Source of the DNA: Escherichia coli | GTDB lineage: Bacteria > Pseudomonadota > Gammaproteobacteria > Enterobacterales > Enterobacteriaceae | Length of the DNA: 44,545 bases | NCBI RefSeq assembly: GCF_003334385.1 | Contig: NZ_QOWN01000035.1 | Strand: one strand, 5' to 3' | Shown: piece by piece, positions 1,879 through 31,913 of the stretch | Layout: each line of letters starts with the position of its first letter | How positions within the stretch are numbered: position 1 is the stretch's first letter | Translations under genes and position numbers: made by a program | The notes under the pieces: generated by a model | The model's input: only the letters and a program-made list of their open reading frames with translations | What the model was told of the DNA's origin: nothing | Databases searched by the model: none

Positions 1879-2976
<1,098 letters not shown>

Positions 2977-3021
2977 TTTATGTTATGTGTTTGTTGTATT
3001 TTTATGCTGCACGCCGGGCGT

Positions 3022-3098
<77 letters not shown>

Positions 3099-7040: not shown

Positions 7041-7078
7041 TCATCAGCCTGATGCCGGGCATAGCCCGGCATAAAAGA

Positions 7079-8443
7079 TTACTGCGCAGCGGCAGGTTTA
7101 CGCGGACGGCGGCGACGTTGTTGTTCGCCTGCCGGTTTGGCATCGCCGAGGCGGCGAGACGGTTTTTCTGCAGGTTTCGCGCTTGCAGATTTTGCGCCAC
7201 CTTCCCCACGGCGTGGTTGCTGTTGACCGCGACCACCACCTTGCCCACGACCGCCGCCGCCACGTTGCTGGCGACCGTTCTGGATCGGTTCGGCTTTGAT
7301 TGACGGGTCCGGCTCATAGCCCGGAATCGCAATGCGCGGGATCTCTTTTTTCAGCAGTTTTTCGATATCACGCAGCAGTTTGTGTTCATCAACACACACC
7401 AGCGACAACGCTTCACCGGTAGCAGCCGCACGACCGGTACGCCCGATACGGTGGACATAATCTTCAGGTACGTTTGGCAGTTCATAGTTGACGACGTGCG
7501 GCAGCTCTTCAATATCCAGGCCGCGCGCAGCGATGTCAGTTGCCACCAGTACACGAATATCGCCCGATTTAAAATCAGCCAGCGCACGAGTACGCGCACC
7601 TTGCGATTTATTGCCGTGGATCGCCGCACTACGGATGCCATCTTTATTGAGCTGTTCAGCCAGATGGTTAGCGCCGTGTTTGGTACGGGTAAACACCAGC
7701 ACCTGCTGCCAGTTCCCTTTCCCAATCATGTGCGACAGCAATTCGCGTTTGCGTTTCTTATCGACAAAGTGAACGTGCTGGGTCACCTGATCAGACGCGG
7801 TATTGCGGCGTGCCACTTCGATTTCCAGCGGGTTGTGCAACAGTTTTTCCGCCAGGGCTTTAATATCGTCAGAGAAGGTCGCGGAGAATAACAGGTTCTG
7901 GCGCTTCGCAGGTAGTTTTGTTAACACGCGACGGATATCGTGGATAAAGCCCATGTCGAGCATGCGGTCAGCTTCATCGAGGACGAGGATTTCAACCTGA
8001 TCCAGCTTCACTGCATTCTGATGTTCCAGGTCCAGCAAACGTCCCGGGGTTGCCACCAGCACATCAACGCCGCCACGCAGTTTCATCATCTGCGGGTTAA
8101 TACTCACACCACCAAACACCACCAGCGAACGAATGTTCAGGTATTTGCTGTAATCACGGACGTTTTCGCCAATCTGCGCCGCCAGTTCACGGGTCGGGGT
8201 AAGAATGAGCGCACGTACCGGACGACGCCCTTTGGCGTGCGGCTGGCGAGTGATCAGGTGTTGCAACAGCGGCAGCGTAAAGCCCGCTGTTTTGCCGGTG
8301 CCGGTCTGGGCGCTAGCCATCAGGTCGCGGCCTTCCAGCACCGCAGGGATCGCCTGCTGCTGAATAGGGGTGGGTTCACGGTAACCCTGCTCGGCAACGG
8401 CGCGCAGGATATCAGGGCTTAAACCCAAAGAATCGAAAGACAT
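7079..8443 (-). CDS. rhlE: DEAD-box ATP-dependent RNA helicase RhlE, 454 aa
   Basis: Q-motif, Walker A (AQTGTGKT), DEAD box (VLDEAD), SAT motif and an arginine/glycine-rich basic C-terminal tail; matches K-12 RhlE. Confidence 0.9.
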
Positions 8444-8636
8444 AACTACTCCGAACCGCCCCGACCGTTACCGGTGTAGTTTTCAGGGAGATACTGAAAA
8501 GGAAAATGACAAAAACCACAATGTCATGAGGGAGCGGAGTGTAGCAGTTTTTGTGACGCAGCGCATAAATTATCCCTGTGACTGGCGTTGCTAAAATTCT
8601 TAGCCATACTGGACAACTCCCCTATGGAGTCATAAT

Positions 8637-8658
8637 CTTAATCAATCATTTGATTAAG
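8637..8658. promoter_or_regulatory. Perfect 9-4-9 palindrome, candidate CecR (TetR-family) operator
   Basis: CTTAATCAA-tcat-TTGATTAAG ends 14 bp upstream of the cecR start; TetR-family repressors usually bind palindromes at their own promoter. Function inferred, not demonstrated here. Confidence 0.45.
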
Positions 8659-8671
8659 AATGGACTGTGCG

Positions 8672-12062
<3,391 letters not shown>

Positions 12063-12070
<8 letters not shown>

Positions 12071-13196
12071 CCCGATCCTGTCCTGGCGTCGCGTACGGGC
12101 GCTGTGCGTTAAAGAGACGCGGCAGATCGTTCGCGATCCGAGTAGCTGGCTGATTGCGGTAGTGATCCCGCTGCTACTGCTGTTTATTTTTGGTTACGGC
12201 ATTAACCTCGACTCCAGCAAGCTGCGGGTCGGGATTTTACTGGAACAGCGTAGCGAAGCGGCGCTGGATTTCACCCACACCATGACCGGTTCGCCCTACA
12301 TCGACGCCACCATCAGCGATAACCGTCAGGAACTGATCGCCAAAATGCAGGCGGGGAAAATTCGCGGTCTGGTGGTTATTCCGGTGGATTTTGCGGAACA
12401 GATGGAGCGCGCCAACGCCACCGCACCGATTCAGGTGATCACCGACGGCAGTGAGCCGAATACCGCTAACTTTGTACAGGGGTATGTCGAAGGGATCTGG
12501 CAGATCTGGCAAATGCAGCGAGCGGAGGACAACGGGCAGACTTTTGAACCGCTTATTGATGTACAAACCCGCTACTGGTTTAACCCGGCGGCGATTAGCC
12601 AGCACTTCATTATCCCCGGTGCGGTGACCATTATCATGACGGTCATCGGCGCGATTCTCACCTCGCTGGTGGTGGCGCGAGAATGGGAACGCGGCACCAT
12701 GGAGGCTCTGCTCTCTACGGAGATTACCCGCACGGAACTGCTGCTGTGTAAGCTGATCCCTTATTACTTTCTCGGGATGCTGGCGATGTTGCTGTGTATG
12801 CTGGTGTCAGTGTTTATTCTCGGCGTGCCGTATCGCGGGTCGCTGCTGATTCTGTTTTTTATCTCCAGCCTGTTTTTACTCAGTACCCTGGGGATGGGGC
12901 TGCTGATTTCCACGATTACCCGCAACCAGTTCAATGCCGCTCAGGTCGCCCTGAACGCCGCTTTTCTGCCGTCGATTATGCTTTCCGGCTTTATTTTTCA
13001 GATCGACAGTATGCCCGCGGTGATCCGCGCGGTGACGTACATTATTCCCGCTCGTTATTTCGTCAGCACCCTGCAAAGCCTGTTCCTCGCCGGGAATATT
13101 CCAGTGGTGCTGGTGGTAAACGTGCTGTTTTTGATCGCTTCGGCGGTGATGTTTATCGGCCTGACGTGGCTGAAAACCAAACGTCGGCTGGATTAG
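12063..13196 (+). CDS. ybhS: ABC-2 type transporter permease, 377 aa
   Basis: Multi-pass membrane protein after an N-terminal soluble region; overlaps the ybhF stop; K-12 order ybhG-F-S-R. Confidence 0.85.
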
Positions 13197-13206
13197 GGAG
13201 AAGAGC

Positions 13207-14313
13207 ATGTTTCATCGCTTATGGACGTTAATCCGCAAAGAGTTGCAGTCGTTGCTGCGCGAACCGCAAACCCGCGCGATTCTGATTTTACCCGTGCTAA
13301 TTCAGGTGATCCTGTTCCCGTTCGCCGCCACGCTGGAAGTGACTAACGCCACCATCGCCATCTACGATGAAGATAACGGCGAGCATTCGGTGGAGCTGAC
13401 CCAACGTTTTGCCCGCGCCAGCGCCTTTACTCATGTGCTGCTGCTGAAAAGCCCACAGGAGATCCGCCCAACCATCGACACACAAAAGGCGTTACTACTG
13501 GTGCGTTTCCCGGCTGACTTCTCGCGCAAACTGGATACCTTCCAGACCGCGCCTTTGCAGTTGATCCTCGACGGGCGTAACTCCAACAGTGCGCAAATTG
13601 CCGCCAACTACCTGCAACAGATCGTCAAAAATTATCAGCAGGAGCTGCTGGAAGGAAAACCGAAACCTAACAACAGCGAGCTGGTGGTACGCAACTGGTA
13701 TAACCCGAATCTCGACTACAAATGGTTTGTGGTGCCGTCACTGATCGCCATGATCACCACTATCGGCGTAATGATCGTCACTTCACTTTCCGTCGCCCGC
13801 GAACGTGAACAAGGTACGCTCGATCAGCTACTGGTTTCGCCGCTCACCACCTGGCAGATCTTCATCGGCAAAGCCGTACCGGCGTTAATTGTCGCCACCT
13901 TCCAGGCCACCATTGTGCTGGCGATTGGTATCTGGGCGTATCAAATCCCCTTCGCCGGATCGCTGGCGCTGTTCTACTTTACGATGGTGATTTATGGTTT
14001 ATCGCTGGTGGGATTCGGTCTGTTGATTTCATCACTCTGTTCAACACAACAGCAGGCGTTTATCGGCGTGTTTGTCTTTATGATGCCCGCCATTCTCCTT
14101 TCCGGTTACGTTTCTCCGGTGGAAAACATGCCGGTATGGCTGCAAAACCTGACGTGGATTAACCCTATTCGCCACTTTACGGACATTACCAAGCAGATTT
14201 ATTTGAAGGATGCGAGTCTGGATATTGTGTGGAATAGTTTGTGGCCGCTACTGGTGATAACGGCCACGACAGGGTCAGCGGCGTACGCGATGTTTAGACG
14301 TAAGGTGATGTAA
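13207..14313 (+). CDS. ybhR: ABC-2 type transporter permease, 368 aa
   Basis: Paralogous to ybhS in architecture; last gene of the ybhGFSR efflux operon. Confidence 0.85.
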
Positions 14314-25883: not shown

Positions 25884-26185
25884 CATCACCATAATATTTC
25901 TGATACAGCGTAAACTCCGCTGTCAATCATGAGCAAAATTTACTCTGTGGCGAGATAAAACTCCGGCCTTACCGGGTTATCCCCAAAGCAACGGCTTTTT
26001 TAACATTTGTCAAGATGAGTGATGACAGTTTTATGGCAAGAGATGCCTGTTCAGTGACTGCCATTGCATTTATCTAACCAGTTAAAAAATAAAAGATATT
26101 TCTTTGAGCCGTCTTTAACGCCAATTCGCGTGCAAGCCGCGTATTCTCTCGCTTGCCTCGTGTTTTCTAACTCTAATACACATGG

Positions 26186-26208
26186 TTATCCACAGGAATA
26201 GTGGATAA
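26186..26208. promoter_or_regulatory. Pair of inverted DnaA-box-like 9-mers
   Basis: TTATCCACA ... gtGGATAAct in the uvrB upstream region; the DnaA box consensus is TTATNCACA. Binding is inferred. Confidence 0.4.
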
Positions 26209-26367
26209 CTGTCTCCAGCCCCTATCCCCCGCCGCCTGGGCAATTCCCACATTCGCCGCATGAGGCGGAAGTAAAATTTTTTTCGTGATTATTTTAGAAT
26301 TTAATTGGTTAAATTGCAGTCAATCGAAGACGCGATCTCGCTCGCAATTTAACCAAATACAGAATGG

Positions 26368-31890: not shown

Positions 31891-31913
31891 CCAGATGGCG
31901 CAATGCCATCTGG
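31891..31913 (+). terminator. Perfect hairpin downstream of ybhB, possible terminator
   Basis: CCAGATGGC-gcaat-GCCATCTGG (9-bp stem); the downstream T-tract is weak, so terminator function is uncertain. Confidence 0.4.

Follow-up and report, generated by a model that had tools for sequence, protein, structure and literature searches.

A conserved palindrome over the cecR promoter of Escherichia coli is very probably the operator of the TetR-family repressor CecR

Operators of CecR and related TetR-family repressors

The TetR protein of Tn10 is a TetR-family homodimer that binds a palindromic operator, tetO, which lies over the promoter of an efflux gene, and it is released by its inducer. CecR appears to be alike in these respects. 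The half-sites of tetO and those of the dyad described here both contain an ATCA...TGAT-type core. The tetO operator is 15 bp long, is bound by one dimer and is present in two tandem copies that control the divergent tetR and tetA genes, whereas a single 20-bp palindrome would control an operon that begins with the regulator gene in the case of CecR.

The QacR operator IR1 of Staphylococcus aureus is a 28-bp palindrome which lies over or downstream of the transcription start site of an efflux gene, where it blocks the passage to productive transcription. The CecR dyad is similarly positioned. QacR is known to bind as two paired dimers. IR1 is 8 bp longer than the CecR operator, which, like IR1, is internally repeated (AATC AATC GATT GATT), an arrangement compatible with two offset dimers.

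AcrR of E. coli is another local TetR-family repressor of multidrug efflux, with a palindrome of about 24 bp in the promoter region of acrAB. In that system the regulator gene acrR and its target acrAB diverge, whereas cecR heads the operon that is its target. The AcrR and CecR operators show no sequence similarity.

CecR (YbiH) has itself been described as a single-target factor, with a genomic SELEX peak at cecR/rhlE and a recognition sequence identified within the spacer between these two genes; in reporter assays the cecR-ybhGFSR operon was controlled negatively and rhlE positively (Yamanaka et al. 2016, as related in PMC5934670 and PMC12998191). A preliminary description of the present locus had named CecR as the regulator of the downstream ybhGFSR genes, in line with this published negative control. 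In vivo ChIP-exo data for CecR (Gao et al. 2018) agree with SELEX, with some extra peaks and a palindromic AT-rich motif, whose description there is not literally that of a 9-4-9 or a 20-bp palindrome. According to published accounts CecR is homodimeric, its DNA-binding domain is of the canonical TetR type, and its affinity for antibiotics has been measured. The YbhGFSR ABC-type efflux system has been associated with sensitivity to cefoperazone, chloramphenicol, tetracycline and CCCP, and mutations in the cecR/rhlE intergenic region are reported to have been selected during evolution under CCCP.

The protected CecR sequence is quoted in none of the CecR texts in the literature searched, Yamanaka et al. 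2016 itself being outside that search, and neither the dyad nor its arms gave a relevant match in a CecR context in that literature. The dyad is almost certainly the published site, since the spacer contains no other long, short-spaced palindrome and since the evidence from conservation, promoter position and linkage given below points to it. The two have in common the organism, the 228-bp spacer, the regulator and, as far as the published accounts go, the outcome, which is repression of the operon. There is probably no difference between them, and we infer that they are identical base for base.

Gel shift and DNase I footprinting of the CecR site were reportedly carried out by Yamanaka, Shimada, Yamamoto and Ishihama 2016 (Microbiology 162:1253), and the EMSA of CecR proposed in the preliminary description is in effect said to have been performed there already. 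The abstract of that work reportedly refers to a complete palindrome, whose arm on the other strand would correspond to TTAATCAA/TTGATTAA.

The CecR operator in E. coli has been known from experiment since 2016, and the present finding is correct but ordinary. Added here are the base-resolution placement of the operator relative to the mapped transcription start site (-8 to +14) and the definition of the conserved unit as a 20-bp palindrome, TTAATCAATCGATTGATTAA, which is retained down to about 40% identity of the regulator.

The cecR locus and its promoter

The stretch of DNA analysed, referred to as the window, is 44,545 nucleotides of E. coli chromosome. The 321 bp around the dyad are found at an identity of at least 95% in 5424 of 5426 complete E. 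coli genomes, and are annotated as the rhlE/cecR spacer. The gene order in a K-12 derivative is rhlE (minus strand), cecR (plus strand), ybhG, ybhF, ybhS and ybhR, and cecR is divergent from rhlE in this annotation, as the preliminary description had supposed in placing the dyad in a region common to both. From cecR to ybhR the neighbouring genes overlap or are 2-10 bp apart, therefore cecR-ybhGFSR forms one transcription unit. The coordinates of the genes and of the other features are collected in Table 1.

Table 1. Features of the cecR-rhlE region, in window coordinates
Feature	Position	Strand	Description
rhlE	7079-8443	-	DEAD-box helicase gene, divergent from cecR
rhlE TSS	8529 (NC_000913 830009)	-	11 reads, 86-nt leader (PMC3415461)
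cecR P1 -35	8610-8615	+	TGGACA; -35 to -30 of P1; kept in nearly all 80 species
Minor cecR TSS (P2)	8618 (NC_000913 829920)	+	65 reads, 54-nt leader (PMC3415461)
cecR P1 -10	8633-8638	+	TAATCT; positions -12 to -7; 17-bp spacer; register set by the mapped TSS
Maximal perfect inverted repeat in E. coli	8636-8659		10-4-10
CecR dyad as first noted	8637-8658		CTTAATCAA-tcat-TTGATTAAG; perfect 9-4-9 inverted repeat; -8 to +14 of cecR P1
Conserved operator core	8638-8657		TTAATCAATC[A/G][T/A]TTGATTAA; 16/20 columns invariant in 81 sequences
Main cecR TSS (P1)	8645 (NC_000913 829893)	+	142 reads, 27-nt leader (Kim et al. 2012, PMC3415461)
cecR (ybiH)	8672-9343	+	TetR-family regulator, 223 aa
ybhG	9346-10341	+	ybhG-ybhF-ybhS-ybhR set, encoding a membrane-fusion protein and an ABC exporter
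ybhF	10334-12070	+	same set
ybhS	12063-13196	+	same set
ybhR	13207-14313	+	same set

The cecR product scores 418 bits against the NCBIfam equivalog NF008587 (cutoff 365) and contains the Pfam domains TetR_N (PF00440) and CecR_C (PF09209). It matches the solved CecR structure (PDB 9i1x) over all 223 residues with an E-value of 3.3e-148 and is close to a Salmonella structure (PDB 1t33). These matches uphold the earlier assignment of cecR to the TetR family, and the dyad adjoins the gene of this regulator.

An in-frame ATG is present four codons 5' of the annotated cecR start (8660-8662), within the P1 leader. This codon is not conserved outside Escherichia and is destroyed by the substitution A8660T, which lies outside the dyad, in E. 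coli strain Ec-U10 (the one variant examined), so 8672 is taken as the real cecR start.

The whole dyad sequence at 8637-8658 is CTTAATCAATCATTTGATTAAG. The perfect 9-4-9 inverted repeat first noted here is present, and a repeat search showed that complementarity reaches 10-4-10: the 10-nt arms TCTTAATCAA (8636-8645) and TTGATTAAGA (8650-8659) are 100% complementary and 4 nt apart. The distance of 14 bp to the cecR start given earlier is also correct in that the ATG (8672, RefSeq annotation) begins 14 bp downstream of the dyad end (8658), with 13 nt between them. In the repeat search the dyad is the sole long, short-spaced palindrome of the 228-bp cecR-rhlE spacer, and no second or weaker CecR half-sites were found in this spacer.

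The dyad is unique in the window even when three mismatches are allowed, and it was found in 0 of 100 shuffles, a test which is specific to that one sequence. A count of any inverted repeat is fairer. There are two perfect inverted repeats with arms of at least 10 and a loop of at most 8 in the window, against 0.5 expected under a first-order Markov model, and five with arms of at least 9, against 1.6 expected. The palindrome by itself is only modestly above chance expectation, so the argument is carried by its context, that is by its conservation and its position in the promoter.

Other perfect inverted repeats in the window, which are G+C-rich and have arms of 9-10 nt, are located at 3069-3094, 7052-7072 and 31891-31913. 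The repeat at 7052-7072 closely follows the rhlE stop codon (7079, minus strand) and resembles a terminator of that gene. At 26185-26209 there is a perfect 9-7-9 inverted repeat, GTTATCCAC-aggaata-GTGGATAAC, each arm of which is DnaA-box-like (TTATCCACA).

Transcription start sites were taken from the genome-wide map of Kim et al. 2012 (PMC3415461, supplementary file 2) and converted to window coordinates. The upstream sequence of P1, as printed in that table, ends in ...GGAGTCATAATCTTAATCAA (...CATAATCTTAATCAA). The main cecR start falls on the final base of the dyad's left arm, and the dyad therefore spans -8 to +14. The -10 element TAATCT keeps the key bases T(-12), A(-11) and T(-7), and its last two bases (8637-8638) are inside the dyad; T8633, A8634 and T8638 are invariant. 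A scan of 8350-8750 with the sigma-70 consensus called no promoter, P1 being missed because TAATCT matches only three of the six consensus positions. We also considered CATAAT (8631-8636), with a 15-bp spacer, as the -10 element. This was dropped, as TAATCT with a 17-bp spacer fits the mapped start and as T8636 is replaced by A in 15 species while T8638 does not vary.

The dyad has 2 bp in common with the -10 element and covers the transcription start site. A repressor bound there would sit on DNA that RNA polymerase has to open and move into, as is classic for steric repression.

The minor start P2 precedes P1 by 27 nt and lies in a region that other genera do not conserve. A transcript begun at P2 would include the dyad in full, potentially folded as a hairpin, and CecR would be a roadblock to it.

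Conservation of the palindrome with CecR

A CecR protein scan with one genome per species gave 80 loci from about 20 genera, in which CecR is 73-100% identical. The genera include Escherichia, Citrobacter, Salmonella, Kluyvera, Enterobacter, Klebsiella, Raoultella, Kosakonia, Leclercia, Trabulsiella, Yokenella and Pluralibacter. The dyad was found in all 80 species, 11-15 bp before the start codon; an apparent distance of 36 bp at one locus (L074) is the product of a truncated protein match. Column statistics were calculated from 81 sequences aligned by anchoring on the motif. Besides the invariant columns of the core (Table 1), two columns have a single exception, and variation is confined to the two central columns, 8648 (74 G, seven A) and 8649 (70 A, 11 T). 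The canonical form, found in most genera, has the centre TCGA and is a perfect 20-bp palindrome. The Escherichia centre TCAT is a derived variant. The dyad symmetry takes the form of a perfect 10-4-10 repeat in E. coli and of a perfect palindrome of 20-24 bp in most other genera.

The information content drops to 0-0.5 bit within a few bases (about 5 bp) on either side of the core, where the flanks are scrambled. Near the dyad, conservation is otherwise limited to two islands, TGGACA at -35 and CA-TA (-14 to -11). The outer pair of the 9-4-9 repeat is unconserved, with C at 8637 in 54 of the 81 sequences and G at 8658 in 19, and the commonest combination, C..T, is non-complementary. The two outer pairs of the 10-4-10 repeat (8636-8659) are not conserved in other genera either. 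The repeat proposed in the preliminary description is thus real, but the conserved unit is the 20-bp core at 8638-8657 and not the 22 bp of the 9-4-9, because the outer C/G pair varies freely.

A block of the spacer at 8507-8575 is conserved as strongly as the operator across the 80 Enterobacteriaceae. It surrounds the rhlE start at 8529 (minus strand) and holds the small inverted repeats ATGACA..TGTCAT (8507-8526) and ACAAAAAC/GTTTTTGT (8509-8516 / 8547-8554). This block is probably a control region comprising the putative rhlE promoter and leader.

Distant homologues were collected with a cluster-representative search for full-length CecR_C-domain proteins of 40-59% identity, from which five loci were sampled. 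The motif is present 5' of four of these five CecR-like genes. At L082 (59% protein identity) the canonical 20-mer is matched at 20/20 positions, within a 24-bp perfect palindrome that is separated from the ATG by 13 nt. L084 (49%) has a 17/20 match, TTAATCATATGATTGATTAA, and two loci from G+C-rich genomes, L087 (43%) and L088 (40%), have matches of 16/20 and 17/20. The exception is L086 (46%), for which no recognisable operator copy was found in the 290-bp AT-rich upstream region (2711-3000). L086 has the same arrangement as E. coli, with a divergent DEAD-helicase neighbour, ybhG/ybhF downstream and an identical helix-turn-helix. Genes of the ybhG/ybhF type are found downstream in L086, L087 and L088, the loci with enough downstream sequence. 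In the 534 kb of DNA fetched, matches of at least 16/20 occur at the operator position only, with a maximum of one per locus.

The helix-turn-helix segment (21 residues) is identical in all six CecR-type proteins aligned, which fits an unchanged recognition sequence. The palindrome is co-conserved with the regulator and its recognition helix in 80/80 species and in four of the five distant loci, and across the species and the distant homologues it is the most conserved non-coding element adjoining cecR. The dyad core is under strong sequence-specific constraint together with CecR-type genes, L086 excepted.

The gene neighbourhood of cecR differs between genera. In Klebsiella pneumoniae (L045) a co-directional LysR-type gene (1507-2430) stops 73 bp short of cecR, and five genes (the LysR-type gene and four more) stand between cecR and rhlE. 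Despite this 73-bp spacer the K. pneumoniae cecR gene keeps both TGGACA-17-TAAAGT and the dyad. The upstream neighbour at L087 is a DabA-type gene. The motif is kept next to these LysR-type and DabA-type neighbours and therefore belongs to cecR, not to rhlE.

The 30 nt around the dyad are identical in 5409 of 5424 E. coli genomes. A 30-nt query finds one place per genome (median), and the maximum of two is the copy number of the whole 321-bp spacer. The preliminary description had suggested a scan for other copies of the dyad; for near-exact copies in the E. coli genomes and in the 44.5-kb window, the dyad proved single-copy in the former and unique in the latter. A dispersed REP/BIME-like repeat was considered and rejected, given one place per genome and a maximum set by the spacer as a whole.

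Probable repression by CecR and alternative explanations

The dyad is very probably the operator of the TetR-family repressor CecR. It had been put forward as a candidate for this role, and the case is strengthened by the transcription start site that it covers, by a core conserved with cecR and by the published site in the same spacer. A CecR homodimer, or possibly two, would bind the dyad through the invariant helix-turn-helix, and bound CecR would sterically block the RNA polymerase open complex at P1. This block would switch off cecR itself and, in the same transcript, the ybhGFSR efflux genes. CecR would then be released, and the operon de-repressed, on binding an effector, given in the literature as chloramphenicol or cephalosporins. 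The centre of the dyad is at -118.5 relative to the rhlE start, beyond the reach of ordinary class I or II activators, so the reported activation of rhlE is more likely to be indirect; it might, for instance, result when the two divergent promoters cease to compete.

The dyad might instead work at the RNA level, as a hairpin of the cecR 5' leader with an effect on translation or on mRNA stability, and not as a protein-binding DNA site. The RNA of 8630-8665 is predicted to form a 10-bp stem of -10.9 kcal/mol (z = -4.6), and the minor start at 8618 (65 reads) would transcribe both arms. However, the P1 transcript (142 reads) is without the left arm, because the main start is the last base of that arm, and the predicted fold of the P1 leader is no more stable than that of shuffled sequence (z = +0.4). 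Neither P2 nor the sequence around it is conserved, which also speaks against a hairpin. What is conserved is the sequence of the arms and not their pairing: the arms are invariant and show no compensatory changes, and the variable outer pair is most often the non-pair C..T. Where arms do differ the changes are uncompensated, with three in the left arm of L084 and three in the right arm of L088. An Rfam search of the dyad region gave no match at E <= 1. A function as a leader hairpin is thus very unlikely.

An intrinsic terminator or structured leader was also tried and rejected. The stem is AT-rich and has no T-run, the terminator scan was negative, there is no covariation, and the transcription start site is inside the stem.

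It is similarly improbable that the dyad is the site of another regulator, global or neighbouring, with CecR binding elsewhere in the spacer. The strongly conserved block at 8507-8575, with its small inverted repeats, could be seen as a second candidate region. That block, however, surrounds the rhlE start and is absent 5' of cecR where rhlE is not the neighbour; at Klebsiella cecR it is absent because the spacer there is only 73 bp. The 20-bp motif accompanies CecR-type genes with as little as 40% protein identity, in very different gene neighbourhoods and in genomes of unlike base composition. The dyad is single-copy in E. coli, unlike the site of a global regulator. CecR is, in the published accounts, a single-target factor with its site in this spacer, and no long, short-spaced palindrome other than the dyad was found there.

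By chance, a 44.5-kb window would hold about 0.5 perfect inverted repeats with arms of 10 bp, but a functionless AT-rich palindrome of chance origin is refuted by conservation and has next to no probability left, with 16 of 20 core positions invariant in 81 sequences amid randomised adjacent non-coding DNA and with the motif recurring at distant loci.

As the operator of CecR, the palindrome has a further internal pattern. The canonical operator consists of four tetramers, TT-AATC-AATC-GATT-GATT-AA, which make up two overlapping AATC-N4-GATT dyads with a 4-bp offset. The inner right (third) tetramer is lost in Escherichia, where GATT has become ATTT, and the inner left (second) tetramer is lost at L084 (49% identity), where AATC has become ATAT. 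The Escherichia and L084 operators each have one intact AATC-N4-GATT dyad plus the outer pair. This four-tetramer pattern was not found in the literature searched. It is compatible with binding of two offset CecR dimers in a QacR-like manner, although the pattern does not by itself establish the stoichiometry. We suggest only tentatively, and as a rather unlikely possibility, that two offset dimers occupy the canonical site and that the Escherichia operator is a naturally weakened variant of it. If this were true, the Escherichia operator would have an altered stoichiometry or affinity, and basal YbhGFSR efflux would be higher in Escherichia than in Citrobacter, Salmonella or Klebsiella.

The position of the repressor explains how mutations in the operator or in cecR could change drug tolerance. 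The TTAATCAATCGATTGATTAA motif may be used for predicting CecR-type operators in other proteobacteria.
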